The notes under the pieces: model-generated | Told to the model about the DNA's origin: nothing | Databases searched by the model: none | The model's input: only the letters and a program-made list of their open reading frames with translations | Source: Escherichia coli | GTDB taxonomy: Bacteria > Pseudomonadota > Gammaproteobacteria > Enterobacterales > Enterobacteriaceae | DNA: 64,000 bases | Assembly: GCF_003334255.1 (NCBI RefSeq) | Contig: NZ_QOWU01000014.1 | Reading direction: 5' to 3' (one strand) | Translations under genes and position numbers: made by a program | Shown: positions 27,092 through 64,000 of the stretch, in pieces | Layout of the letters: the number at the start of each line of letters is the position of its first letter | How positions within the stretch are numbered: the stretch's first letter is position 1

Positions 27092-28150
27092 GTGGATAAG
27101 CCATTTCGAAGAATTTTGCTCATTAAGATGCGTTTTCATGGGGATATGTTATTAACTACTCCCGTCATTAGTTCGCTGAAAAAAAATTACCCTGACGCAA
27201 AAATCGATGTGCTGCTTTATCAGGACACCATCCCGATCCTGTCTGAAAATCCAGAGATTAACGCGCTCTACGGCATAAAAAATAAAAAAGCAAAAGCCTC
27301 AGAAAAAATTGCCAACTTTTTTCATCTCATCAAGGTATTACGTGCCAATAAGTATGACCTTATCGTCAATCTTACCGATCAATGGATGGTTGCTATACTG
27401 GTTCGCTTATTAAATGCTCGTGTGAAAATTTCCCAGGATTATCATCATCGGCAGTCTGCTTTTTGGCGTAAAAGTTTCACCCATTTGGTGCCGTTGCAGG
27501 GTGGAAATGTGGTGGAAAGTAACTTATCCGTGCTGACACCATTGGGACTTGATTCGTTGGTGAAGCAGACAACCATGAGTTACCCGCCTGCAAGCTGGAA
27601 ACGTATGCGTCGCGAACTTGATCACGCTGGTGTTGGACAAAATTATGTGGTTATCCAACCTACGGCGCGGCAAATCTTCAAATGCTGGGACAACGCCAAG
27701 TTTTCCGCTGTGATTGATGCCTTACATGCTAGTGGTTATGAAGTCGTTCTGACGTCCGGCCCGGATAAAGACGATCTGGCCTGCGTCAATGAAATTGCGC
27801 AGGGATGCCAGACGCCACCAGTAACGGCGCTGGCTGGAAAGGTGACCTTCCCGGAACTTGGTGCGTTAATCGATCATGCGCAGCTGTTTATTGGCGTTGA
27901 TTCCGCACCGGCGCATATTGCCGCTGCAGTTAATACGCCGCTGATATCGCTGTTTGGTGCGACAGACCATATTTTCTGGCGTCCCTGGTCAAATAACATG
28001 ATTCAATTCTGGGCGGGAGATTACCGGGAAATGCCAACGCGCGATCAGCGTGACCGAAATGAGATGTATCTTTCGGTTATTCCGGCGGCAGATGTCATTG
28101 CTGCTGTCGATAAATTACTGCCCTTCTCCACGACAGGTACGTCGTTATGA
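27092..28150 (+). CDS. waaQ: LPS heptosyltransferase III
   Basis: 352 aa ORF from GTG; first gene after ops element; annotated start may be the internal TTG or ATG 8-12 codons in. Confidence 0.88.
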   Translation: MDKPFRRILLIKMRFHGDMLLTTPVISSLKKNYPDAKIDVLLYQDTIPILSENPEINALYGIKNKKAKASEKIANFFHLIKVLRANKYDLIVNLTDQWMVAILVRLLNARVKISQDYHHRQSAFWRKSFTHLVPLQGGNVVESNLSVLTPLGLDSLVKQTTMSYPPASWKRMRRELDHAGVGQNYVVIQPTARQIFKCWDNAKFSAVIDALHASGYEVVLTSGPDKDDLACVNEIAQGCQTPPVTALAGKVTFPELGALIDHAQLFIGVDSAPAHIAAAVNTPLISLFGATDHIFWRPWSNNMIQFWAGDYREMPTRDQRDRNEMYLSVIPAADVIAAVDKLLPFSTTGTSL

Positions 28151-29271
28151 TCGTTGCTTTTTGTTTATATAAATATTTTCCCTTTGGCGGTTTGCAGCGC
28201 GATTTTATGCGTATTGCTCAGACAGTCGCCGCCCGAGGTCATCATGTTCGGGTTTATACCCAGTCGTGGGAAGGCGAATGCCCTGATGTATTTGAACTGA
28301 TCAAAGTGCCGGTTAAATCGCATACCAATCACGGGCGCAATGCGGAGTATTTTACCTGGGTGCAAAAACATTTACGCGAACATCCCGTCGATAAAGTCGT
28401 TGGATTCAACAAAATGCCGGGGCTGGACGTTTATTATGCCGCTGATGTTTGTTATGCCGAGAAAGTAGCGCAGGAGAAAGGCTTTTTCTATCGCCTGACG
28501 TCACGTTATCGCCATTATGCCGCCTTTGAGCGGGCAACCTTCGAACAGGGCAAGCCGACACAGCTGCTGATGCTGACAGATAAGCAAATCGCCGATTTCC
28601 AGAAACATTATCAGACTGAAGCGGAGCGTTTTCATATTCTGCCACCGGGGATTTATCCTGATCGTAAATATAGCCAGCAGCCAGCCAATAGCCGTGAAAT
28701 CTTCCGTAAGAAGAATGGAATAACCGAACAACAATATTTATTGTTGCAGGTCGGTTCAGACTTCACGCGTAAAGGTGTCGATCGTTCCATTGAAGCACTT
28801 GCTTCTTTACCGGATTCGCTGCGCCACAACACATTGCTATATGTTGTTGGGCAGGATAAACCGCGAAAATTTGAGGCGCTGGCAGAAAAACGCGGCGTGC
28901 GCAGTAATGTTCACTTCTTCTCGGGGCGCAATGATGTCTCGGAATTAATGGCGGCGGCGGATTTATTACTGCATCCTGCCTACCAGGAAGCGGCGGGAAT
29001 TGTGCTGCTGGAAGCGATTACTGCAGGATTACCGGTACTAACAACAGCCGTTTGTGGCTATGCGCCTTATATTGTCGAGGCCAATTGCGGCGAGGCTATT
29101 GCTGAGCCATTCCGCCAGGAAACATTGAATGAGATTTTACGCAAAGCGTTAACGCAATCTTCATTGCGCCAGGCCTGGGCGGAAAATGCGCGACATTATG
29201 CTGATACACAAGATTTATACAGTCTGCCAGAGAAAGCGGCGGATATCATAACGGGTGGTCTGGATGGTTGA
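28147..29271 (+). CDS. waaG: LPS core glucosyltransferase I (GT4)
   Basis: 374 aa ORF; 4 nt overlap with waaQ stop. Confidence 0.95.
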
Positions 29272-30061
29272 ACTTAAAGAGCCGTTTGCCACGTTATGGC
29301 GCGGTAAAGATCCTTTTGAGGAAGTTAAAACCTTGCAGGGTGAGATATTTCGTGAACTGGAAACTCGCCGTACTCTGCGCTTTGAAATGGCGGGAAAAAG
29401 CTATTTTCTCAAATGGCATCGCGGCACGACCCTGAAAGAGATAATCAAAAATTTACTCTCATTGCGGATGCCAGTATTAGGCGCAGACCGCGAATGGAAT
29501 GCGATTCATCGACTGCGGGATGTCGGCGTTGATACTATGTATGGGGTGGCATTCGGCGAAAAAGGCATGAATCCGCTGACCAGAACCTCGTTTATTATTA
29601 CCGAAGATCTGACACCAACCATAAGTCTGGAAGATTACTGTGCTGACTGGGCGACCAACCCACCAGATGTTCGCGTAAAGCGTATGCTTATTAAGCGTGT
29701 CGCGACGATGGTGCGCGATATGCATGCTGCGGGCATTAATCACCGTGACTGTTATATCTGTCATTTCCTGCTGCACTTGCCTTTTTCCGGTAAGGAAGAG
29801 GAGTTAAAAATTTCGGTAATTGACCTGCACCGGGCGCAGCTTCGCACGCGCGTTCCACGTCGTTGGCGCGATAAAGATCTTATTGGACTTTATTTTTCTT
29901 CGATGAATATTGGCCTGACTCAGCGGGATATCTGGCGGTTTATGAAGGTGTATTTTGCCGCTCCGCTTAAAGACATTCTCAAGCAGGAACAAGGACTGCT
30001 GTTGCAAGCAGAAGCAAAAGCCACAAAAATCAGGGAAAGAACGATTCGAAAATCGTTGTAA
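29264..30061 (+). CDS. waaP: LPS core heptose(I) kinase
   Basis: ORF 29255..30061; start trimmed to [14 protein letters not shown] (265 aa); overlaps waaG 3' end. Confidence 0.93.
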
Positions 30062-30103
30062 CCCGTAACTTATTTTTGCCAAAATTTTGGATACAGAATA
30101 AAT

Positions 30104-31111
30104 ATGTCTCAACTCAATGATAGTGACATCATCCTTTTTGAGTATAATTTTCATTATCAAAATATAAGATCTAAAAATACTCTTGATATAGCATTTGGTA
30201 TTGACAGAAATTTTCTTTTTGGATGTGGTGTAGCCATCGCATCTATTCTATTAAACAATAGAGAAATCTCTTGTGAATTTCATGTTTTCACAGATTATAT
30301 CAGTGATAAAGACAAATTATATTTTTCTGATTTAGCAAAACAATATAATTCAAGAATTAATATTTATGTTATCAATTGTGATAAGCTGAAGTCATTACCA
30401 AGCACGAAAAACTGGACTTACGCAACATATTTTCGATTTATAATTGCAGATTATTTCTATCATAAACATGAAAAAATACTATATCTTGATGCAGATATTG
30501 CTTGCAAGGGTAGTATTAAAGAACTCTTAGATTATCAATTTTCTACTAATGAAATTGCCGCAGTTGTAGCTGAAAGAGATGTTGAATGGTGGCAAAATCG
30601 AGCCTCGGTATTAACTACACCACAGTTAGCTTCTGGATATTTCAATGCTGGTTTTTTACTGATAAATATTGATGAGTGGAATCTAAATAACATTTCGTCA
30701 AAAGCTATTGAAATGTTGCGTGACCCAGATTGGGTAAGTAAAATCACCCACCTTGATCAAGATGTACTGAATGTATTATTGAATGGTAAAGTGAAGTTTA
30801 TTTCGGAGAAATATAATACCCGATATAGTATTAACTATGAATTAAAAGACAAAGTTGATAATCCAGTCAATGATGACACCGTGTTTATACACTATGTGGG
30901 ACCTACAAAACCCTGGCATGAGTGGGCTGACTATCCGGTGTCACGTAGTTTTTTGATCGCCAAAGCAGCTTCTCCGTGGAGTAAAGAAGATTTACTTAAA
31001 CCTGTAAATAGCAATCAGTATCGGTATTGTGCAAAACATAAATTTAAACAAAAGCATTATATGGCAGGCATTTTTAATTATTTAAAGTATTATAAAGAAA
31101 AATGCTTCTAA
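30104..31111 (+). CDS. waaI: GT8-family LPS outer-core hexosyltransferase (R3-type WaaI-like)
   Basis: 335 aa ORF, low GC; GT8 features (DxD region LYLDADI, C-terminal HYxGxxKPW-like motif); position after waaP. Confidence 0.65.
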   Translation: MSQLNDSDIILFEYNFHYQNIRSKNTLDIAFGIDRNFLFGCGVAIASILLNNREISCEFHVFTDYISDKDKLYFSDLAKQYNSRINIYVINCDKLKSLPSTKNWTYATYFRFIIADYFYHKHEKILYLDADIACKGSIKELLDYQFSTNEIAAVVAERDVEWWQNRASVLTTPQLASGYFNAGFLLINIDEWNLNNISSKAIEMLRDPDWVSKITHLDQDVLNVLLNGKVKFISEKYNTRYSINYELKDKVDNPVNDDTVFIHYVGPTKPWHEWADYPVSRSFLIAKAASPWSKEDLLKPVNSNQYRYCAKHKFKQKHYMAGIFNYLKYYKEKCF

Positions 31112-31136
31112 AGATTTAAGGTTAAAATAATTCATT

Positions 31137-31844
31137 ATGATATATAATAAAACGATAAATGGGTTGAAAGTTTTCATAAAAGATAATGATCCCTTTTATG
31201 AGCAAGTTCTAAATGACTTTTTAACTTGCAGGGTTAAAACATTAAAAGTTTTTCGTTCTATTGATGATACTAAAGTCATTCTTATTGACACTGCTCGTGG
31301 ACCTCTTGTACTTAAAGTTTATGCGCCAAAGCATAAAATGACCGAACGTTTCTTAAAATCTTGCATAAAAAAAGATTATTATGAAAATTTAATTTATCAA
31401 ACCGATCGGGTACGTGGTGAAGGCATCCAATCAATTAATGACTATTTTTTGCTAGCTGAACGTAAAACATTAAATTTCGCTCATTATTATATTATGCTCA
31501 TTGAGTATATTGAAGGTGTCGGGTTAAATGAGTATTTGGAAATTTCTGAAGATCTGAAGGATCAATTATCAGAATCGATAAAAGAGTTGCATCAGCATGG
31601 AATGGTGTCTGGCGATCCTCATAAAGGAAATTTTATAGTATCCGAAAAAGGTTTAAGACTAATTGACCTTTCAGGTAAAAAAACAACCGCTGTTTTAAAA
31701 GCAAAAGATCGCATTGATCTTGAACGGCACTATAATATAAAAAATGAATTGAAAGACTTTGGCTATACATATCTTATATTCAAAAAGAAAATTAAAAAAG
31801 TAATCAGGGATGTAAAAGTCAAACTAGGATTGAAGAGCAAATAA
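31137..31844 (+). CDS. waaY: LPS core heptose(II) kinase
   Basis: 235 aa low-GC ORF, kinase-like; position between two GT8 genes. Confidence 0.75.
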   Translation: MIYNKTINGLKVFIKDNDPFYEQVLNDFLTCRVKTLKVFRSIDDTKVILIDTARGPLVLKVYAPKHKMTERFLKSCIKKDYYENLIYQTDRVRGEGIQSINDYFLLAERKTLNFAHYYIMLIEYIEGVGLNEYLEISEDLKDQLSESIKELHQHGMVSGDPHKGNFIVSEKGLRLIDLSGKKTTAVLKAKDRIDLERHYNIKNELKDFGYTYLIFKKKIKKVIRDVKVKLGLKSK

Positions 31845-31868
31845 TGATTATGATGAAGGGTAATTAAA

Positions 31869-32882
31869 TTGGATTTTAAACATCTTACTCAATTTAAAGA
31901 TATAATTGAACTGGACAAGCGCCCCGTTAAACTTGATGAACGGGAAACGTTTAATGTCTCATGGGGTATTGATGAGAACTACCAGGTTGGGGCTGCGATT
32001 TCAATTGCTTCAATTCTTGAAAATAATAAACAAAACAAATTTACCTTTCACATAATCGCTGATTACTTAGACAAAGAGTATATTGAATTATTATCACAAT
32101 TAGCAACGAAGTATCAAACAGTAATTAAATTATATCATATTGATTCTGAGCCATTGAAGGCGCTACCTCAATCAAATATCTGGCCAGTATCTATTTATTA
32201 TCGTTTGCTTTCATTTGATTATTTTTCTGCGCGATTGGATTCATTATTATATCTTGATGCTGATATCGTCTGTAAGGGTTCATTGAACGAGTTAATAGCA
32301 TTAGAGTTTAAAGATGAATATGGGGCAGTGGTAATTGATGTAGATGCTATGCAAAGTAAAAGCGCTGAGCGTTTGTGTAATGAGGATTTTAACGGTAGCT
32401 ATTTTAACTCTGGTGTAATGTATATTAATTTACGGGAATGGTTAAAACAAAGACTAACGGAAAAATTCTTTGATCTATTATCAGATGAGTCAATTATAAA
32501 AAAATTAAAGTACCCGGATCAAGATATTTTAAACTTAATGTTTCTACATCATGCTAAAATATTACCGAGAAAATATAATTGTATTTATACTATAAAGTCA
32601 GAATTTGAAGAAAAAAATAGTGAATATTACACCCGGTTTATTAATGATGACACTGTCTTCATACATTATACTGGTATAACTAAGCCATGGCATGATTGGG
32701 CGAACTACGCCTCTGCAGATTATTTTCGTAATATTTATAATATATCACCATGGAGAAATATACCTTATAAAAAAGCTGTTAAAAAACATGAGTACAAAGA
32801 AAAATATAAACACTTGCTTTACCAGAAAAAATTTCTCGATGGTGTTTTTACAGCAATTAAATATAATGTTATGAAAGGTTAA
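31869..32882 (+). CDS. waaJ: GT8-family LPS outer-core glycosyltransferase (WaaJ-like)
   Basis: 337 aa ORF, paralogous to 30104..31111 (LYLDADIVCKGS, FIHYTGxTKPWH). Confidence 0.65.
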   Translation: MDFKHLTQFKDIIELDKRPVKLDERETFNVSWGIDENYQVGAAISIASILENNKQNKFTFHIIADYLDKEYIELLSQLATKYQTVIKLYHIDSEPLKALPQSNIWPVSIYYRLLSFDYFSARLDSLLYLDADIVCKGSLNELIALEFKDEYGAVVIDVDAMQSKSAERLCNEDFNGSYFNSGVMYINLREWLKQRLTEKFFDLLSDESIIKKLKYPDQDILNLMFLHHAKILPRKYNCIYTIKSEFEEKNSEYYTRFINDDTVFIHYTGITKPWHDWANYASADYFRNIYNISPWRNIPYKKAVKKHEYKEKYKHLLYQKKFLDGVFTAIKYNVMKG

Positions 32883-32890
32883 TATACGAG

Positions 32891-34033
32891 ATGGTTGATA
32901 AAATAATATTTACGGTTACTCCTATTTTTTCAATTCCTCCTCGCGGAGCGGCTGCTGTTGAAACGTGGATGTATCAGGTTGCTCAGCGTACCAATTTTCC
33001 AAATCGTATTGTTTGTATCAAAAATCCAGGATACTCAAATTACACCTTTGTTAATGATAATTGTAGTATTCATAGGGTTGGATTCAGTCGCATATATAAG
33101 CGGTTATTTCAAAAATGGACAAGACTTGATCCTCTTCCATATTCACAGAGAATATTGAATATTGCACATGATTTTCCTATAACGAAAGAAAGTGTTATTG
33201 TAGTTCATAATAGCATGAAGCTATACACTCAAATTCGTAAGCGAGCTCCTCAGGCAAGAGTGGTTATACATATGCATAATGCATTTGAACCAAAATTGCT
33301 TGAGCAAAATGTTAAAATGATAGTGCCTAGTTTATACTTGAAAAAGTATTACCAATCTTATTTAGCAAATGCAGATATTGAGATTGTACCAAATGGAATT
33401 GATTTAGAAACCTATCAATCTAATTTTCAGCCGATCACTAGAAGCGAACTTAATATCTCCCCTGAAGAGAAAATTATTTTTTATGCTGGGCGTATCGTCC
33501 CTGACAAAGGCATATTGCTGTTGATGCAATCATTCGAAAAATTGGCCGCTGCTCACAAAAATTTAAAATTAGTTGTGATTGGTGATTATACAGAAATGAG
33601 TAAAAGTGACAAAGGTGCATATCAACGCAATGTCAGGGAAATTGCAAAACGTTTGAAGGATCGTTGCATTATGTTAGGAAGCATACCGCCTGAAAAGATG
33701 CATTGTTATTACCCACTGGCAGATTTAGTCGTCATTCCTTCCCAGTTCCAGGAACCATTTTGCATGGTGGCAATTGAAGCTATGGGTGCTGGTAAGCCTG
33801 TTTTAGTGAGTACGCGTGGGGGGATGACGGAATTTGTCAAAGAAAATACTACGGGATTCCATTTAAAAGAACCTATGACTGCAGACTCCATAAGCAGCGA
33901 TATTTTAAAAACGTTAGCGAATCCTGAATTAACAGCAGTTGCAAAGCAAGGTCAGGACTTTGTGTTTGATCACTACAGTTGGGATGGCGTAACTCAAAGA
34001 TTCGAAGAGGTTATTCATAATTGGTTTGAATAA
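32891..34033 (+). CDS. waaD: GT4-family glycosyltransferase, terminal outer-core transferase (R3 WaaD-like)
   Basis: 380 aa low-GC ORF with GT4 C-terminal motifs (EPFCMVAIEAMGAGKPV); last gene before convergent waaL. Confidence 0.55.
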   Translation: MVDKIIFTVTPIFSIPPRGAAAVETWMYQVAQRTNFPNRIVCIKNPGYSNYTFVNDNCSIHRVGFSRIYKRLFQKWTRLDPLPYSQRILNIAHDFPITKESVIVVHNSMKLYTQIRKRAPQARVVIHMHNAFEPKLLEQNVKMIVPSLYLKKYYQSYLANADIEIVPNGIDLETYQSNFQPITRSELNISPEEKIIFYAGRIVPDKGILLLMQSFEKLAAAHKNLKLVVIGDYTEMSKSDKGAYQRNVREIAKRLKDRCIMLGSIPPEKMHCYYPLADLVVIPSQFQEPFCMVAIEAMGAGKPVLVSTRGGMTEFVKENTTGFHLKEPMTADSISSDILKTLANPELTAVAKQGQDFVFDHYSWDGVTQRFEEVIHNWFE

Positions 34034-34035
34034 AT

Positions 34036-34066
34036 AAAAAGGCCGCATTATGCAGCCTTTTTTATT
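34036..34066. terminator. bidirectional terminator between convergent waaD and waaL
   Basis: A-run, hairpin ggccgcattatgcagcc, T-run. Confidence 0.65.
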
Positions 34067-34068
34067 TT

Positions 34069-35277
34069 TTACTTGTTTTTCATCGCTAATAATAAGCCGG
34101 CGTAAACGCCTAATAAATTTGGTTCAATTTGTTCTACGTTTCCACGGATAACAAAATAACCTATAAAAGATAGTAAGATTATATAATATGCATTATATGG
34201 TGAGCGATATTTATTCTTGACGCCATTTTTTATACACTCTTTCAATATTGCACAGTATAGCATCATAAGACTTACCAGCCCTAATAAACCAGTGCCAAAC
34301 CAGATGAATAGCGCAAAATTATGTGGCCCTATTGATTGTCTAAAGGTCCATTCTGGATAATCAATGACACGTTTATTATAGACATCTTTATATGCAACGT
34401 TACCGTAACCATAACCAATAACAGGATTTTCTAATATTAGATCGAGTGCGCTGCCTTGAGTACCATTTGCATAGCGATAAGAACTATTAGTTTGTTGAAG
34501 TTTATACGTTAGCTTTGCGGTCATCTCCTTATGTGTGAAAATAACCGACAATGCAATGATGGCAACCATTACTCCTACTAATAGTAACTTCCATTGTTTA
34601 AACATCAGAATCCATATTAATCCAATGACTAACACGGAAAGCCAGGCCCCTCTGGATAAAGTTCCTAATATCAGAAAAATAAAAATAACGCTTAGAACCA
34701 CAAAAGAAATGCGGTATTTTGCTGATTTGATAAGCCAGAGATTTAACAATGCAGGGAATAAAAAGACCATCGAGTCAGAAATGCTACGGTGTCTATAATC
34801 TGCGAATGGCATTATCCCTTGTTGATAGTCCTTATAATAGGTAATCAATTCAGAAAAACAGCGTAAGCCCAACGCACTAATAAATGAGAAGAAAACGATT
34901 TTTTCGACATCTTCTCTTTTCTCGTCTCTCAATATGATCGGTATTGCTATTGTGCATAGTAAAGTATTCTCAATAATAGCTTTGAAAATTTCCTTCATGC
35001 TAGCACCTGCATCAGGGGATTGAAGAAGTGACAGCAATGCAGCAATAGTTAATATGGCAACACTACCAAAAAGAAATGTTTTAAATAGTGAGAGATAGTG
35101 TTTTGGCCGTTTGCAGAGATAGACGATTGTCGTTATTGTCATAAGAATAACAATAAGATGTTTATACCTTGTAATCCCACCCAAAAAATAGGTGGTAATG
35201 AATAAGAATACGAGAGCTCTGTTCCAGTACGCTATCCAGTTTTTTTTCTCGAGAGAGAAAAATAATGTTGAGGTCAT
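34069..35277 (-). CDS. waaL: O-antigen ligase
   Basis: 402 aa polytopic membrane ORF, low GC; immediately downstream of waaC with ATGA-type overlap. Confidence 0.85.
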   Translation of the reverse strand: MTSTLFFSLEKKNWIAYWNRALVFLFITTYFLGGITRYKHLIVILMTITTIVYLCKRPKHYLSLFKTFLFGSVAILTIAALLSLLQSPDAGASMKEIFKAIIENTLLCTIAIPIILRDEKREDVEKIVFFSFISALGLRCFSELITYYKDYQQGIMPFADYRHRSISDSMVFLFPALLNLWLIKSAKYRISFVVLSVIFIFLILGTLSRGAWLSVLVIGLIWILMFKQWKLLLVGVMVAIIALSVIFTHKEMTAKLTYKLQQTNSSYRYANGTQGSALDLILENPVIGYGYGNVAYKDVYNKRVIDYPEWTFRQSIGPHNFALFIWFGTGLLGLVSLMMLYCAILKECIKNGVKNKYRSPYNAYYIILLSFIGYFVIRGNVEQIEPNLLGVYAGLLLAMKNK

Positions 35278-36266
35278 CTTATCTCCGATGTCAACTTATT
35301 GGTTATTATTTCAAGATTTAAATTTTGAAAAACGGTTTGAGCTGGCAAATCTGCAAGAGACATACTTGTAGAACGACACTCTACTTGATTCTTCCCATAC
35401 CCACCAATTAATCCCGGATCGGTTGGTCCATAAACCGTGATATTGGGTCTATCCAGTGCCGCCGTTAAATGGCTTAACCCCGTATCCACCGACACTACAA
35501 ATTTAGCCCCGGCCAGCACGCGGGCAACGCCTTCCAGACTCATCTTCGGCAATACTTCAACATAAGCAAATCCTTCCGCCAGTCGTTTCGCCCGTTCTTC
35601 CTCATGCGGCGCGCCCCACGGAAGTTTAATCCGTATTCCTGAATCAGCCAGTAAACCAATCAATTCTCGCCAGTGTTCTTCCGGCCAGTGTTTATCATCA
35701 CGGGTCGTCGCATGAAGAAATACGGCATATTCGCCAGCATCTGTAGGCAGGTTCGTCAGAAAATGCTGTGCGATAGCATAATCGCCCTGGGTTTGCGGTT
35801 TGCTATAGCCCAAACTTTTGGCAAACAGTTCGCGGGTGCGTTCTACGGCGTGCTGCTGTTTTGCAATATGATGCTTACGATTGTAAAACAGGCTGGCTAA
35901 AGGTTCGCGAGCGGTTTGCCAGTCCATGCCATGCTTTACGCCATGCGCCAGACGCGTCACCAGCGCCGCGCTTTTTACCAGCCCCTGAGCGTCGATAACT
36001 GCGTCATAGTTCTCTGCTTGTAGCGCTTCACGAAACGCTTTGCGTTCCGCTTTTATGGGGGCCGAGAACCAGGCTTTACGCCAGCGACGTATTGCCACAG
36101 GAATAACTCGCTCAACGGCAGCGTGCCAGGAAGGAATCTGTGCGAACCCTTCTTCCACCACCCAGTCAAACTTAATCCCTGGGATTGCCTGCTGGGCATC
36201 AGTGAGTGCGGGCAACGTATGGAGAACATCGCCCATCGACGATGTTTTAACGATCAAAACCCGCAT
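35274..36266 (-). CDS. waaC: LPS heptosyltransferase I
   Basis: 330 aa ORF MRVLIVKTSSMGDVLHTLPALTDA... Confidence 0.95.
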   Translation of the reverse strand: MRVLIVKTSSMGDVLHTLPALTDAQQAIPGIKFDWVVEEGFAQIPSWHAAVERVIPVAIRRWRKAWFSAPIKAERKAFREALQAENYDAVIDAQGLVKSAALVTRLAHGVKHGMDWQTAREPLASLFYNRKHHIAKQQHAVERTRELFAKSLGYSKPQTQGDYAIAQHFLTNLPTDAGEYAVFLHATTRDDKHWPEEHWRELIGLLADSGIRIKLPWGAPHEEERAKRLAEGFAYVEVLPKMSLEGVARVLAGAKFVVSVDTGLSHLTAALDRPNITVYGPTDPGLIGGYGKNQVECRSTSMSLADLPAQTVFQNLNLEIITNKLTSEIR

Positions 36267-46985: not shown

Positions 46986-47229
46986 TGCGACAACCTCATA
47001 CTCAAGAGTCAAAATTTGCGTAATTTTACTACAGCTGAATCGATAAAATAGCCTCTGAAGATCAAAATATACGACCGCTCGCGGCAAGCCGATGCCAGAT
47101 TTACGCTTTTTTTTCGTCGCGCCCCGCAAAATTGCATTCCAGTTAACGCGCTGGCTGTATTTGCCGCACCGCGCAGGTATACTCCTTTCCTGGTTTTTTT
47201 AATCACTACGTCGGGAGTTGTTACCCCCC

Positions 47230-56087: not shown

Positions 56088-56675
56088 TTACTTTTGAAAG
56101 GCTTTTTTTAAGCTGATTTTGGAAATCAGCTCAGTCAGTGAAAGGACCATTGTTGATCGCACAGCCTGTTGATAGCGCTGAATTTGCATTGCATACAAAC
56201 TGGAGTCTGCTGGTTCAAACTGTGGCGGCGGTGGTAACGCCGCCACGCAGTGCAGTTCACCAAAGGGTCCAAGGATTTCGTCGTCGGTAAAGGCGTACTC
56301 GTTGCCGTCGTGATTTAGCTCTTCACGCAATGCCATCAGCAGTTCCGCATCTTCGTATTCCTGGCGGTTAATGACGCCCAACCCGTAAATGAGTTTTAAA
56401 CGCACAGAAAGATCGCCCAGCGGACCATCGCCGTCGAGTAACGGTTCTACAGCATACTTCACCGCGTAATCGTCTTTGCGGAATACCTGAAGCACCAGAA
56501 GATTTACCGCCTCGGTCAGGAGCTCGACGGCGGTGATCAGAAAGCTTCGCACGGTTTTGCCAGCATTCAGACGCTCAAGCACACGGTTTTCAAAGGCCTG
56601 GGTTTGTTCCATTGTTGCCTGCATATCTGACAATCTGTTATTCGGGCGCAGGGTGTCCTGCGCCTGGTCCACCAT
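56088..56675 (-). CDS. mtlR: mannitol operon repressor
   Basis: 195 aa ORF, last gene of mtlADR. Confidence 0.95.
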   Translation of the reverse strand: MVDQAQDTLRPNNRLSDMQATMEQTQAFENRVLERLNAGKTVRSFLITAVELLTEAVNLLVLQVFRKDDYAVKYAVEPLLDGDGPLGDLSVRLKLIYGLGVINRQEYEDAELLMALREELNHDGNEYAFTDDEILGPFGELHCVAALPPPPQFEPADSSLYAMQIQRYQQAVRSTMVLSLTELISKISLKKAFQK

Positions 56676-57823
56676 TATTGCATTGCTTTATAAGCGGTTA
56701 CCGCCTCGGATACAACCTCGCTGTTGGCATCAAGACCGGAAATCTGTGCCAGCGCCGCCTGCGGACCTTTGTCAGCGATCAGTGCTGCCAGTTCCTGAGC
56801 CTGCGGATCATCTTCACTGCGGAAGTGCATTGCAGCGGCAATACCTTCAATCAGGTTTTTATGTGGCAGACCATATTCCAGCGTACCGAGCAGTGGCTTG
56901 ATCAGACGGTCGCCAGCACTCAGTTTACGCAGTGGCTGACGGCCTACGCGCTCTACATCATCTTTCAGATACGGGTTCTCAAAACGGCCGAGAATTTTCT
57001 GGATGTACGCCGCATGCTTGTCAGCGTCAAAGCCGTAGCGCTTGATCAATACTGCACCACTTTCTTCCATCGCACCTTTTACCACCGCGCGGATTTTCTC
57101 GTCGAGAATCGCGTCACGAATGGTCTGATGACCGGCCAGTTTTCCGAGGTACGCGGTTATAGCATGACCCGTGTTCAGGGTGAAGAGTTTACGTTCGACA
57201 AATGCCATCAGGTTGTCGGTTAACTCCATGCCTGGGATGTTCGGCAGTGCGCCTTTGAACTGCGTTTTATCGACAATCCATTCGCTGAAGGTTTCTACCG
57301 TCACTTCCAGCGGATCGTTAGTTGCCGAAGCCGAAGGCGGTACGATGCGGTCAACGGCGGAATCGACAAAGCCAACGTGTTCTTCTACCCACGCTTTGGC
57401 GTCTTCCGGCAGGGCGTTCATCACATGGCCTTTCAGCTGCGTGGTACCGCGTACCATGTTTTCACAGGCGATGATGTTCAGCGGGGATTCATTACCTTGT
57501 TCTTTACGTTTCACCAGCCCTTTGGCGATTGCCGGAGCAATACGTTCCAGCACAACCGGGCCAACGGCGGTAGTGACTAAATCAACCTGAGCAATCAGAT
57601 CAACGACATCATCACCAATGCTGCTGACAGCATTGACGCCGGAAACGGTATCTACCTGCTCGGTTTCACCAACCACATGTACCTGATAGCTATGACGGGC
57701 ATTCAGGGCATCAAGTACCACCTGATTGACATCGGCAAACGTCAGTTGGATACCCGCGTCTGCCAGCAGTTTACCGATAAAGCCACGACCGATATTACCT
57801 GCGCCAAAATGTAATGCTTTCAT
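56675..57823 (-). CDS. mtlD: mannitol-1-phosphate 5-dehydrogenase
   Basis: ORF 56675..58141 runs upstream through REP sequences; trimmed to [15 protein letters not shown] (382 aa). Confidence 0.96.
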
Positions 57824-57849
57824 AGTATTAACCTTCATCAATGTTTTTA

Positions 57850-58048
57850 CCCGAGAGGGCTGGGGTGAGGCTTTTCCCTCACCCAAACCCTCTCCGTGAG
57901 GAGAGGGGCAGCGCCGGATGCGGCGTAAGCGCCTTATCCGGCCTACAAGAACGTGCAAATTCAACAAATTGTGATGCATCCTGTAGGCCTGATAAGCGTA
58001 GCGCATCAGGCAATTAACCCCACCTTCTCCATGTGGAGAGGGTGGGAT
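57850..58048. repeat. BIME/REP cluster in mtlA-mtlD intergenic region
   Basis: Two REP units (gccggatgcggcgtaagcgccttatccggcctaca; gatgcatcctgtaggcctgataagcgtagcgcatcaggc) plus CCCTCACCC/CCCTCTCC palindromes. Confidence 0.75.
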
Positions 58049-58052
58049 TGGA

Positions 58053-59966
58053 TTACTTACGACCTGCCAGCAGTTCCAGCACTTCATCCACGCTGGTGGT
58101 GTGTGCCAGACGCTCGATGACGGACTCATCATCCAGTGCATTGGTCAGGCTGGTGATAACCTGAATGTGCTCGTTGTTACGGGCAGCAATACCAATCACC
58201 AGACGGGCAATGTCATCTTCTTCTTCACCGAAGCGCACGCCTTCCGGGTACTGGCAGAACACGACGCCCGTTTTCAGTACGCGATCTTTCGCTTCAACCG
58301 TACCGTGTGGCACCGCGATAGACTCACCCAGATAAGTCGGGGTCAGTTTTTCACGATCCAGCATCGCCTGAACGTATTCCGGCTCAACGTAACCGCCTTT
58401 CACCAGCTGCTCGCCAGCAAAACGAATCGCTTCTTCTTTGGTTGCCGCTTTGCGACCGAGGAAGATGTTCTCCGCGCCTAGCTTGAACAGGTTAGCACTG
58501 GAATCGTCAAAGCTGTCTTTCAGGCTGTCTTTTACTTTCTCTTCGTTTGCCGTGTGGCGTTGGGCAGCAACCAGACGTTCGGTCAGGCTGGTGTACAGGC
58601 CGCTGTCGAGGAAGTTGGTCAGCGAAATATGCTGTGCCTGCGGAACCTGGCGCATAGCGCGTTCGGTCAGGTCACGGTGAGTGATGACGAGGTCCACATC
58701 TGGCGGCAGGTTGTTGATCGCGCTGTTAGTAACAGAAATCTGCGACAGACCTGCATCCTGAATTTTCTTACGCAGAACGCCTGCGCCCATCGCACTGGAA
58801 CCCATACCGGCGTCACAGGCAACGATGATTTTACGTACGTGGCTCAGGTCGTTAGTCACATCGCCAGCAGACAGCGGAGATGCGCCTTTAGACTCAGCTT
58901 TCATGTCCTGCATACGACGAGTTGCTGCTTCAATATCATCTTCTTCTTTCACTTTGCTGGTTTTCAGCAAAATAGCAGAGACAACGAAGGAGACAGCCAT
59001 CGCCGCACACACACCCGCGATGTTAGCGAAGTAAGCACCTTTTGGTGTCATCGCCAGTACAGCAAGGATAGAACCCGGAGATGCCGGAGAAACCAGACCA
59101 CCGCCCAGGATAGTCAGCGTGAACACGCCAGTCATACCGCCGAGGATGACTGCGAGGATCAGACGCGGATTCATCAGCACATACGGGAAGTAGATTTCGT
59201 GGATACCCCCCAGGAAGTGGATGATTGCCGCACCGCCCGCAGACTGTTTAGCGCTACCACGACCAAAGAACATGTACGCCAGCAGCACGCCCATACCTGG
59301 ACCTGGGTTAGCTTCAATCAGGAAGAAGATTGATTTACCCAGTTCATGGGACTGCTGAATACCCAGCGGCGAGAAGATACCGTGGTTAATGGCGTTGTTG
59401 AGGAACAGGATTTTCGCCGGTTCAACAAAGATAGACGCCAGCGGCAGCATGTCATGGACAACCATGAAGTTAACGCCCGCAGCCAGCATTTTGGACAGGG
59501 CTTCAACAATCGGGCCAATGCCGAGGAATGCCAGAATAGCGAGGATCATCCCGATGATGCCTGCGGAGAAGTTATTCACCAGCATCTCAAAACCGGATTT
59601 GATCTTACCGTCTACCCAGCGGTCGAAGTGCTTAATGCACCAGCCGCCCAGCGGACCTGCAATCATAGAACCGAGGAACATCGGCATGTCTGCGCCGACG
59701 ATAACGCCCATGGTGGTGATGGCACCGACTACGCCGCCACGTTCGCCGCCTACCAGCTTACCACCGGTATAACCGATCAGCAGCGGCAGGAGATAAGTGA
59801 TCATCGGCCCGACCAGCTTCGCCAGCGTCTCGTTCGGTAACCACCCTGTTGGAATAAATAACGCGGTGATGATACCCCACGCGATAAACGCGCCGATATT
59901 TGGCATCACCATGTTGCTGAGGAAACGACCAAAGCTTTGCACTTTGATCTTAATATCGGATGACAT
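58053..59966 (-). CDS. mtlA: PTS mannitol-specific EIICBA
   Basis: 637 aa [30 protein letters not shown]... Confidence 0.97.
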
Positions 59967-60109
59967 AAAAACACCCCTTCTTATGTTTGCTGTCGCGCAG
60001 GCTGGAAGCCCGAGGTTTTTTGTTAATGTGGCGGCAGAGGTAGCCGGACCTTGTAGATACTGCGAAATCTGGCACTGAATCGGTTAACTGTCCAGTCGAC
60101 GGCCTTTTG

Positions 60110-60125
60110 TGTGATATCAATCACA
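60110..60125. promoter_or_regulatory. CRP-binding site TGTGATATCAATCACA in mtlA upstream region
   Basis: TGTGA-N6-TCACA palindrome. Confidence 0.65.
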
Positions 60126-60226
60126 TAAATATAGGGGGTAGAGAGGTAATTGACGTGACGTTCATCACAAAACGCTTGTGTAAAAAAGCAACAAGGCGGC
60201 GATTTTCGCTAAAAATGGCATTTAAA

Positions 60227-60242
60227 TGTGAGTAGTGTCACA
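60227..60242. promoter_or_regulatory. CRP-binding site TGTGAGTAGTGTCACA in mtlA upstream region
   Basis: TGTGA-N6-TCACA palindrome. Confidence 0.6.
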
Positions 60243-60270
60243 TTTTTGTTTTGATGGTTTGTTGAATCTT

Positions 60271-60286
60271 TGTGATCTGAATCACA
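60271..60286. promoter_or_regulatory. CRP-binding site TGTGATCTGAATCACA in mtlA upstream region
   Basis: TGTGA-N6-TCACA palindrome. Confidence 0.65.
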
Positions 60287-60502
60287 AGATATTTTCTTAC
60301 GGCGTTCACCTGATGTGATCTACAGCATGTTATGCCTTCGTCATACAATCGTTATGTAACTAAGCAACTCATCACCTCTAAAAATTATTCTTTGGTGTTA
60401 TGGCGAGAATCGCGAACCCGGATTATTGTCAAAATATCAGCCTGACTCCCTTCTGGCTGCCAGCCCAAAAACAACACTGATAAACGTGAATCCGAGGCAG
60501 AT

Positions 60503-60865
60503 ATGTTTCTAAACTATTTCGCGTTGGGAGTGCTGATCTTCGTCTTTCTGGTGATTTTTTATGGAATCATCGCGATACATGACATCCCTTATCTGATTGC
60601 CAAAAAGCGCAACCATCCCCATGCCGACGCTATTCATACGGCGGGCTGGGTGAGCCTGTTTACTCTGCATGTTATCTGGCCGTTTCTGTGGATCTGGGCG
60701 ACGCTCTATCAACCGGAGCGTGGCTGGGGTATGCAGTCACATGTTGCGTCGCAGGAGAAAGCGACTGACCCGGAAATCGCCGCACTTTCTGACCGAATTT
60801 CCCGGCTGGAGCATCAACTCGCCGCCGAGAAAAAGACTGACTATTCCACGTTCCCGGAGATCTAA
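60503..60865 (+). CDS. yibI: DUF3302-like small inner membrane protein YibI
   Basis: 120 aa ORF with two TM segments; 2 nt before yibH. Confidence 0.85.
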
Positions 60866-60867
60866 TT

Positions 60868-62004
60868 ATGGATCTATTGATTGTTTTAACTTACGTGGCG
60901 CTGGCGTGGGCGGTCTTTAAAATCTTCCGCATTCCGGTAAATCAGTGGACGCTGGCGACGGCGGCGCTGGGAGGCGTGTTTCTGGTGAGTGGTTTGATTT
61001 TGTTGATGAACTACAACCACCCTTACACTTTTACCGCGCAAAAGGCAGTGATAGCGATCCCTATCACGCCACAGGTGACGGGAATTGTTACTGAAGTCAC
61101 TGACAAGAATAATCAGCTTATTCAAAAGGGCGAGGTGCTTTTTAAGCTCGACCCGGTTCGTTACCAGGCGCGAGTTGACAGACTTCAGGCTGACCTGATG
61201 ACGGCGACGCATAATATAAAGACGCTGCGTGCGCAGCTCACTGAAGCGCAGGCCAACACCACCCAGGTTTCAGCGGAGCGCGACCGTCTGTTTAAAAATT
61301 ATCAACGTTACTTGAAAGGCAGCCAGGCGGCGGTGAATCCGTTCTCGGAACGTGACATCGACGATGCGCGGCAAAATTTCCTCGCGCAGGATGCGCTGGT
61401 GAAAGGCTCGGTGGCGGAGCAGGCGCAGATCCAGAGCCAGCTCGACAGTATGGTTAACGGCGAGCAATCGCAGATTGTGAGCTTAAGAGCGCAACTTACT
61501 GAAGCAAAATATAACCTTGAGCAGACTGTCATTCGCGCGCCGAGCAATGGCTACGTTACTCAGGTACTGATCCGCCCAGGTACATACGCAGCTGCCTTGC
61601 CGCTGCGTCCGGTGATGGTCTTCATCCCCGAGCAAAAACGGCAAATTGTCGCCCAATTTCGGCAAAACTCGCTGTTACGTCTGAAACCCGGCGATGATGC
61701 GGAAGTGGTGTTTAACGCGCTACCTGGGCAGGTGTTTCACGGCAAACTGACTAGTATTTTACCTGTCGTGCTAGGCGGTTCTTATCAGGCGCAGGGGGTA
61801 TTGCAATCATTAACGGTCGTGCCCGGCACGGACGGTGTGCTGGGAACCATTGAACTGGACCCTAACGATGATATCGATGCCTTACCCGACGGCATCTACG
61901 CCCAGGTGGCGGTTTACTCCGACCATTTCAGCCATGTTTCGGTGATGCGGAAAGTGCTGCTAAGAATGACCAGCTGGATGCATTATCTTTATTTGGATCA
62001 TTGA
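60868..62004 (+). CDS. yibH: HlyD-family membrane fusion protein YibH
   Basis: 378 aa ORF; N-terminal TM, coiled-coil, C-terminal beta-barrel HlyD-like region. Confidence 0.88.
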
Positions 62005-62463
62005 GGGGGAGGGGGGAGATTATGGAACTTTGCTCCTTGTAAGGACTAATTATTTTTGCATATTACTTCATTAGCTGCGATGATTTTTCTTTAATATTCA
62101 TTATGTTAATAAGTTCTGGATGAGTGTGCTCTCATTGGATTTTTTATCCGTCTTGTTCTGCCGCAGGATGAGACTATACATCGTCGAGATCGCAATGATG
62201 ATATGAGTTGTTCCTCCTGCGACGGCTCTAATCAAAAAAGAGCAGGAGTGCTTTTCCATCTATTGCGATGATGGCTTTATTATCTGAAGGATGACAGTCA
62301 CATTTAAAAAATATTTAATCTATAGATCACAATGTAGGGTCATGGAATATATGTATACAACTATTTTCTTCTTCACTTTTAATTATCGTATTCATTATAA
62401 AACTAAGTTAAAAAAACTCCTGGAGAGTGAGTTATTAATATATTTTTAAATAAAATTAAGTTA

Positions 62464-62984
62464 TCATTCATCGATGCACTTTATAGAATCATCAATGGCC
62501 ATAATAGTACTATTAACTCTCAATTTTATATTTTTATCATCACTACAAATATTAACTGAATTTATATCAATGATTTTTTTATTCTTATCTTTTATTTTAT
62601 TTACTGTTTCAATGCAATCAGCGGCAAGTTGGAGTGGATTTAGATTTTTCAGATATGGTCTTATGATCTTTCCCTTACTTAATAAATAGCATGTATAGGA
62701 TTCGGAAAGTCCAGCATCTATTTTGTACCTCATTATATTAGATAAGGATGTGAGAAATTCCTTGTTATCATTCGCAGCCATATATGCCAGTCCGAGTTCA
62801 GCCTCTGCGGCCTTACAGGCAAAATAGCTTAGTGAACACGCTTTTCGTCCCTCTTTAGTACTGGCTGATATTAGTGCCCATAATATTGCTTTGTCTGCCA
62901 AATCTAACTCTCTCTGAAATTGTCTTGCAGTAACTGCACTCGCAGAAATAGAGAAAAAAATACAATTGTTAATAATCTTGCCAT
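62464..62984 (-). CDS. Sel1-like repeat protein, putative Rhs-toxin immunity protein; in-frame ORF covers 62464..62901 only, upstream ATG (62982..62984) with signal peptide is out of frame across a T7 tract
   Basis: ORF track 62464..62901 starts at TTG; ATG 5 nt after the upstream CT ORF stop encodes MARLLTIVFF.. then frame is lost in homopolymer at 62954..62960; low GC. Confidence 0.45.
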
Positions 62985-62989
62985 ATTTT

Positions 62990-63600
62990 TTAGTCCGTAA
63001 CTGTTAATGTGCTATCTGGCTCTGAAAATATTAACTCATTTAATTTTTGCATGTCATTAGATAAACCAGTTATACAACCCTCGGAACAGAATCGAGGTCC
63101 TAAAGACGGACCAAAAGCGTTTAAACAACTATGTATTGAAAATCCATTGCGATTATAAGTTCCTGTATTAACTGACGGTACTAATCGTATGCCGTCAGGT
63201 TTTCTATTGCTTGCTCCCGGGTCATTAACATTCCAACTCCATAGGCCTTGAGGTATTGGCCATCTATTTATAAATGTGTACAACGGGGATTATTTTTACA
63301 TTGCATATTATTACCAGAAGCGACTGGAATACTAAGCACATCATAAAAATTATCATCACATGGTATATCTGAAACACACGAAAGCATACCTAAAGTTATG
63401 CTGTATAAACAGGTGGCTAATCCCAAGGGGATCGATTCCAGAAATCGGGTTCAACGGATACTGATAAAAATTCCACCTACCTTCCAGCCCAATCGGAGCC
63501 TGAGTGTTATACCGCCCCTGCTGCGGTTAATGTTACCGATAATAGTTATAGTACAGCCCTGATTCATCATCATACTACTGCTGCGGCAGTCTGATGAACT
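62990..63600 (-). pseudogene. degenerate orphan Rhs fragment: Rhs core C-terminal remnant (..[45 protein letters not shown]) plus C-terminal toxin-tip coding sequence split over three frames
   Basis: Manual translation of minus strand; ORF track shows only the 97 aa tail 62990..63283; stops and frame changes interrupt the core motif; no intact start. Confidence 0.55.
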
Positions 63601-63607
63601 ATTGCTT

Positions 63608-63982
63608 TTACGGATTCTCCTTATTCTTCCTTCTATCCATTCGCTTTAGCTTTTTGAGCTCTTGAAGTTTGCTCTTTGCATCAATATTACCGTTATTTAC
63701 AGCGAATTCCATCCAATAAATAGCTCTATTCAAATTATAATATTCTGATAATGTTGGATTTGTATCTGATAAAAAGACCCCATAATTAAACTGCGCTGTA
63801 ACATTCCCCTGAGATGCTGATCTTTCCAAGAATCGCAATTGTTTGTAAATGTTATTTTTAGTAAAGCAGTAATATTGATATAGTCGAAATGATGCCTCTG
63901 AATCACCATGTTGTGATTTATACTTCAGTTTCATCAACTTTTCTTCACTTAAATCATAGGTCATTGCTGTAGACCCCATCAT
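63608..63982 (-). CDS. Sel1-like repeat protein, putative immunity protein of the upstream Rhs toxin module
   Basis: 124 aa low-GC ORF with Sel1/TPR-like repeats (AQFNYGVFL..., AIYWMEFAVNNG); directly upstream of the Rhs core remnant. Confidence 0.5.
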   Translation of the reverse strand: MMGSTAMTYDLSEEKLMKLKYKSQHGDSEASFRLYQYYCFTKNNIYKQLRFLERSASQGNVTAQFNYGVFLSDTNPTLSEYYNLNRAIYWMEFAVNNGNIDAKSKLQELKKLKRMDRRKNKENP

Positions 63983-64000
63983 ACTTTCGTTTTGTTTTAT

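Follow-up and report, generated by a model that had tools for sequence, protein, structure and literature searches.

The mtlA-yibI intergenic spacer of the analysed window (here, the whole 64,000-base stretch of DNA) is best read as the control region of mtlADR, with a probability that we put at about 0.94. Under this reading, five CRP sites accompany a weak CRP-dependent sigma-70 promoter, the CRP array serves as the activator platform and also as the MtlR operator, and Cra adds repression. No feature of the sequence speaks against this reading. The sites, their statistics, their agreement with the published map and the conserved spacing come from the present analysis, and protein binding and the effects on expression are taken from the literature. 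The five-site CRP array of mtlA is already known E. coli biology, and the tethering of MtlR as the reason for its spacing has been in print since July 2026 (Lee et al. NAR 2026, PMC13421365); only the order-wide 44-73-44 invariance, a 10-bp variant in Edwardsiella and a set of conserved blocks are mildly new.

The features of the locus are collected in Table 1. An earlier note on this DNA had described a 536 bp region upstream of mtlA, which is indeed the extent of the spacer; mtlA is on the minus strand, so that higher coordinates in the spacer lie further upstream of it. The genes mtlA, mtlD and mtlR were all intact, in the order mtlA-mtlD-mtlR. Bases 59900-60560 were identical to E. coli K-12 MG1655 at 661/661 positions (100% in the spacer), and four substitutions relative to MG1655 were found in the colinear stretch from mtlR to yibH. 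The region was present in 5405 of the 5426 complete E. coli genomes, in every case chromosomal and between mtlA and yibI. Beyond about 62580, downstream of yibH, the window diverges from K-12 in an Imm57/Rhs-remnant region. The G+C content was 0.37-0.40 at 28001-36000 and 0.42 at 60001-64000, and about 0.51-0.56 elsewhere in the window. The mtlA-mtlD intergenic region gave a sub-threshold match to Rfam naRNA4 on both strands at 57876-57943 (38 bits vs. a gathering score of 59.5), which was read as a putative REP-type palindromic element.

Table 1. Features of the mtl locus in the 64,000-base window; CRP centres are also given relative to the mtlA transcription start site (TSS).
Feature	Coordinates	Strand	Details
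mtlR, mannitol operon repressor	56088..56675	minus	195 aa; Pfam MtlR domain only
mtlD, mannitol-1-phosphate 5-dehydrogenase	56675..57823	minus	382 aa
mtlA, PTS mannitol transporter EIICBA	58053..59966	minus	637 aa
mtlA-yibI divergent intergenic spacer	59967..60502		536 bp; ORF list and annotation
mtlA 5' UTR	59967..60058	minus	about 93 nt from TSS 60059; Shine-Dalgarno AAGGGG
Core promoter mtlAp (predicted)	60059..60094	minus	-35 TGGACA at 60094..60089; 17-bp spacer
Extended -10 of mtlAp, TGcCAGATT (predicted)	60074..60066	minus	
Cra (FruR) operator ACTGAATCGGTTAA	60074..60087	plus	-15 to -28, between -35 and -10
CRP5 TGTGATATCAATCACA	60110..60125		10/10 core; centre 60117.5 = -58.5; promoter-proximal, Class I-like activator site
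CRP4 CGTGACGTTCATCACA	60154..60169		9/10 core; centre 60161.5 = -102.5
Conserved block TGTTGCTTTTTTACA, TGT-N2-T7-ACA	60179..60193	minus	inside the 73-bp CRP3-CRP4 spacer
CRP3 TGTGAGTAGTGTCACA	60227..60242		10/10 core; centre 60234.5 = -175.5
CRP2 TGTGATCTGAATCACA	60271..60286		10/10 core; centre 60278.5 = -219.5; most conserved site
CRP1 TGTGATCTACAGCATG	60314..60329		7/10 core; centre 60321.5 = -262.5; weak
Second, weaker copy of the block, AGTTGCTTAGTTACA	60355..60369	minus	upstream of CRP1
yibI (DUF3302), divergent neighbour	60503..60865	plus	ORF list and annotation

CRP sites were called by the number of matches to the TGTGA-N6-TCACA core and by their rank within the window. Exactly three perfect palindromes were found in the 64,000 bases (CRP5, CRP3 and CRP2), all within 177 bp of the spacer, vs. 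a mean of 0.04 in dinucleotide-preserving shuffles, none of which reached three (0/100). Allowing one mismatch added a single site window-wide, CRP4, and the four 16-mers of the window that match 9/10 core bases or more were thus all located in the mtlA-yibI spacer. Matches of 7/10 were common (175 in the window), for which reason CRP1 was not significant and cannot be called from sequence alone; its call rests on its position, the literature and its conservation across species. The coordinates and sequences of the three palindromes had been given correctly in the earlier note, and they are the only perfect ones in the window. The same note had counted at least three sites plus a TGTGA half-site near 60314: these sites are real, but the total is five, CRP4 having been missed, and the TGTGA at 60314-60318 belongs to a full, weak site, CRP1.

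Five mtl CRP sites were reportedly footprinted by Ramseier & Saier in 1995. The recent K-12 map places the CRP centres at -262.5, -219.5, -175.5, -102.5 and -58.5, with gaps of 43, 44, 73 and 44, and gives CRP1 7/10 conserved bases and CRP2 and CRP3 10/10 (PMC13421365). In the window, the centre-to-centre gaps from CRP5 to CRP1 were 44, 73, 44 and 43 bp, and the centres, gaps and core counts all agreed with the published values. All the published numbers being in agreement, the 16-mers were assigned as CRP1-CRP5, names that are based on spacing and core counts and not on printed sequence. The window therefore shares with the K-12 mtlADR control region its locus, an identical spacer, the five sites, their spacings and their core counts; the unusually CRP-rich mtl promoter of E. 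coli named in the earlier note is the one present here, and the comparison with the characterised K-12 sites that had been suggested ended in agreement. In CRP genomic SELEX, the yibI-mtlA spacer ranked second in abundance among the clone classes, with 38 clones (Shimada et al.), and it came first in PhyloScan, a PWM-based CRP search that answers the PWM scan suggested in the earlier note.

The array was compared across species by scanning one genome per species with the first 200 MtlA residues as query, which returned 80 loci, one of them from a Tolumonas MAG and the others from Enterobacterales (Escherichia to Providencia, Serratia, Pectobacterium, Rahnella and Edwardsiella). All 80 species kept four strong CRP sites, and the 44-73-44 spacing was conserved within 1 bp in 79 of them, being exactly 44-73-44 in 72 loci, 44-72-44 in four, 44-74-44 in two and 45-74-43 in Tolumonas (n = 1). 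The single further arrangement, 44-63-44, was found in Edwardsiella hoshinae (locus L081, about 150-300 bp upstream of mtlA), in which both 44-bp gaps were kept and the middle gap, at 63 bp, was exactly 10 bp shorter, or one helical turn, suggesting that helical phase may be the constrained quantity. A core of at least 9/10 was observed for CRP5 in 76/80 species and for CRP4 in 74/80, the range for CRP2 to CRP5 being 74-76/80, and the CRP2 core was perfect (10/10) in 58/80. At precisely 43 bp upstream of CRP2, a CRP1 with at least 7/10 core bases was present in 38/80 species, with counts of 0-5 at other offsets. Identity to E. coli was 50-55% for the spacer sequences vs. 66-79% for the 16-mers, and CRP5 lay between 131 and 256 bp from the start of the mtlA match across the 80 loci. 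This comparison shows independently that site geometry, and not spacer sequence, is under selection across Enterobacterales. It agrees with PMC13421365, whose survey of operator architecture covered just four other species, and shows in addition that the 73-bp gap is under as tight a constraint as the gaps of 44 bp.

A functionless chance cluster of palindromes in AT-rich intergenic DNA deserves practically no credence as an explanation: the frequency of 7/10 matches is the one point in its favour, and against it stand the three perfect sites where 0.04 were expected, the sites and spacing kept across the order, and the published binding and mutant data. The shuffle statistics and the conserved spacing already refute it. 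It is also improbable that the array chiefly controls the divergent yibIH, or that yibIH and mtlADR share it equally. In favour of this reading, the spacer is divergent, Shimada et al. place both genes downstream of the CRP-binding sequence, and RpoD-SELEX (PMC3946193) lists, within the yibI/mtlA spacer, the constitutive RpoD promoter TCTACA-19-TACAAT, which was located at 60319-60349 on the plus strand, pointing toward yibI, its -35 overlapping CRP1. However, a yibI homologue was upstream of mtlA in only 27 of the 80 loci, the four-site array being present in 80/80 and thus kept in the 53/80 without yibI, from which we conclude that the array belongs to mtlA. Moreover, the strong sites lie 170-390 bp from the yibI start, and chromosomal site mutations abolish mtl expression and mannitol growth (PMC13421365). 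A literature search on yibI/yibH regulation found nothing specific. yibI is outside the mtl system; at most CRP1 could serve it, and this site might act on yibIH and not on mtlA.

For the mtlADR control region, the mtlA TSS near 60059 (+1 = T) was back-calculated from the published CRP centres and may be 1-2 nt off; we infer its exact coordinate, the promoter hexamers and the looping geometry considered below. The -35 and -10 hexamers of mtlAp were conserved across the 80 species. A generic sigma-70 and terminator scan, whose output was at chance level, did not find mtlAp, as expected for a CRP-dependent promoter. The sequence ACTGAATCGGTTAA, between the two hexamers, is an exact match to the Cra consensus RSTGAAWCSNTHHW, which had three matches in the window vs. 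0.72 expected. The other two exact matches were at 47034-47047 and 61332-61345, the second inside yibH. The match in the spacer agrees with the Cra binding and repression reported at mtlA (PMC5888115). Folding of the mtlA 5' UTR revealed no structure beyond that of shuffles (z = -0.36), and an Rfam scan of 57700-60900 at E <= 1 gave no match in the spacer and hence no E. coli equivalent of the MtlS antisense RNA known from Vibrio.

The MtlR encoded in the window matched the solved structure PDB 6kcr and contained Pfam PF05068 only, with no DNA-binding domain. According to PMC13421365, which presents EMSAs along with mutants of the spacing and of the chromosomal sites, MtlR and HPr, alone or together, do not bind mtl DNA without CRP; an MtlR supershift is obtained only with two CRP dimers 43-46 bp apart (optimum 44-45 bp); MtlR is not recruited by the CRP3-4 pair, whose spacing is 73 bp; and a malK operator was turned into an MtlR target by resetting its 34-bp spacing to 44 bp. 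In the window, the pairs CRP1-2 (43 bp), CRP2-3 (44 bp) and CRP4-5 (44 bp) fell within the 43-46 bp range, and CRP3-4 (73 bp) outside it. The CRP array itself is the MtlR operator, and separate ones are not supported. The same study reports that dephosphorylated EII-Mtl sequesters MtlR, which leads to derepression, and that HPr competes for the same MtlR surface. As for activation, strains with a chromosomal mutation in CRP2, CRP4 or CRP5 neither express mtl nor grow on mannitol, mutation of CRP3 has a mild effect and mutation of CRP1 has none, this site staying empty when CRP2 and CRP3 are available; phase-dependent looping or anti-silencing was put forward as an idea in the Discussion (PMC13421365).

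Taken with the site map, these reports suggest the following scheme. cAMP-CRP at CRP5 and CRP4 recruits RNA polymerase in a Class I / Class III manner, as published; CRP2, and to a lesser degree CRP3, are needed as well, probably through a looped or wrapped structure dependent on helical phase, and the weak CRP1 is dispensable. MtlR, unable to bind DNA, is held by pairs of CRP dimers, making the array an activator platform and a repressor operator together. Mannitol transport dephosphorylates EII-Mtl, which draws MtlR to the membrane and relieves repression, again as published, and Cra adds repression from its operator between -35 and -10.

The conservation of positions outside the CRP sites was evaluated in an ungapped alignment anchored on these sites, and several non-CRP spacer positions were as conserved as the CRP sites in the 80 species. 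The block TGTTGCTTTTTTACA, centred 24.5 bp from the CRP4 centre, reached up to 1.7 bits per position at this fixed offset, and its arms were matched at 7/8 positions or more at the same CRP4 offset in 49/80 species, vs. a background of 0.18 per offset. Its T7 run was conserved in Enterobacteriaceae; in distant genera the block read TGTA-N7-TACA, its arms forming TGTAG-N5-CTACA-like dyads with a variable centre in Providencia and Rahnella. The second copy, AGTTGCTTAGTTACA, was conserved in those Enterobacteriaceae that have CRP1, and lies within a 32-nt direct repeat, D1 (60337-60368 vs. 60161-60192, 72% identity, 176 bp apart). On the minus strand, AAAATA (60290-60295), 4-9 nt 5' of CRP2, was nearly invariant across Enterobacterales, as was AACAAA (60257-60262), which starts 8 nt 3' of CRP2 and has its centre 19 bp away from that of CRP2; the conservation of both motifs extends well past the 22-bp CRP consensus.

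Several candidates for these blocks were discarded. The TGT and ACA of TGTTGCTTTTTTACA are 9 nt apart and not 10, which makes it 1 bp too short for a sixth CRP site, and D1 is not a duplicated CRP module, its second copy having only 5/10 of the CRP core. By manual comparison, TGTTGCTTTTTTACA fitted the Fis and IHF consensus only partially, and distant genera conserved the arms of the block and not the Fis G/C ends. A search for the CytR octamer GTTGCATT gave one octamer with one mismatch in the spacer and 45 in the window vs. 86 expected, and TGTW-N7-TACA occurred four times in the window vs. 2.6 expected, that is, not as a window-wide repeated operator. Fis footprinting was reportedly carried out by Gonzalez-Gil in 1996, and TGTTGCTTTTTTACA has perhaps already been footprinted there; the conserved blocks may correspond to Fis sites that the literature mentions, or to architectural A-tracts. 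Fis sites are mentioned in PMC13421365 without positions, and the A-tract reading fits the looping idea of its authors.

The earlier note had also seen room for MtlR operators in the long spacer, an expectation that this re-analysis corrects along with the site count. Separate operators recognised directly by MtlR, such as the TGT-N2-T7-ACA block or other dyads, would account for the conserved non-CRP blocks between the CRP sites and for the titration of MtlR in vivo by a multicopy mtl promoter fragment (PMC5320558). Nevertheless, we regard them as very unlikely: MtlR carries the MtlR Pfam domain alone, with no DNA-binding motif, and purified MtlR, with or without HPr, produces no shift of mtl DNA when CRP is absent (PMC13421365), which leaves such operators unsupported. 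In addition, re-spacing to 44 bp suffices to recruit MtlR to the unrelated malK operator, and the conserved block sits between CRP3 and CRP4, which alone among the pairs fail to recruit MtlR. A further element beside CRP, MtlR and Cra would complement the main explanation and not compete with it. Tentatively, the invariant 73-bp interval and the TGT-N2-T7-ACA block could form an A-tract or protein site that phase-locks the CRP2/3 complex onto CRP4/5-RNA polymerase. This possibility, which we hold to be real although not the likelier outcome, draws on the gap of exactly 73 bp in 72/80 species (1 bp off in seven and 63 bp in Edwardsiella), on the information content of TGTTGCTTTTTTACA at its fixed CRP4 offset and its second copy upstream of CRP1, and on PMC13421365, which itself proposes phase-dependent looping or anti-silencing and mentions Fis sites. 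On the other hand, no factor was matched (CytR at chance, a poor Fis/IHF fit, 1 bp short for CRP), the motif was unenriched in the window, and the block may be a Fis site that has already been footprinted. Somewhat more doubtful still is the wider proposal that the 73-bp interval, TGTTGCTTTTTTACA, AGTTGCTTAGTTACA and AAAATA/AACAAA are an undescribed part of the mtl switch, either a protein docking site or a built-in bend phasing a CRP2/3-MtlR loop onto CRP4/5-RNA polymerase. If true, it would explain why the far-upstream CRP sites are essential, which was left open by PMC13421365; the conserved blocks and the phase-preserving 10-bp variant bear on how CRP sites 175-220 bp upstream activate a promoter.

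The mtlADR control region resembles other systems in part. As in malEp-malKp, where three to four tandem CRP sites occur alongside MalT boxes, several CRP sites in tandem build a higher-order nucleoprotein structure ahead of an operon for sugar transport; however, the mal promoters depend on MalT, whereas mtl lacks a specific regulator that binds DNA, and the malK CRP2 and CRP3 sites are 34 bp apart and do not recruit MtlR unless re-spaced to 44 bp (PMC13421365). In the CytR-CRP promoters (deoP2, cdd and udp), CRP likewise activates transcription and also serves a specific repressor as its platform, the repressor sitting on or between tandem dimers, but CytR, a LacI-family protein, also contacts DNA octamers, whereas MtlR has no DNA-binding domain and the selecting feature at mtl is the 43-46 bp spacing and not sequence. 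The capture of a repressor at the membrane by a dephosphorylated PTS transporter, with derepression as the result, is shared with Mlc-EIIB(Glc), although Mlc binds its own DNA operator and MtlR is tethered through CRP.

Two further elements were observed in the alignments of the 80 loci. A GGA-N5-TCC dyad (e.g. CCAGGAGAAATCCTGG) was present between CRP1 and CRP2 in many loci from Citrobacter, Klebsiella, Enterobacter and Kosakonia (L004-L010, L015, L035, L052 and others), and its E. coli form, GGTGAACGCC, at about 60303-60312, is degenerate. Within the 5' UTR, the block CACATTAACAAAAAACC (60014-60031, minus strand) was kept in most of the 80 species and might be recognised by a post-transcriptional regulator.
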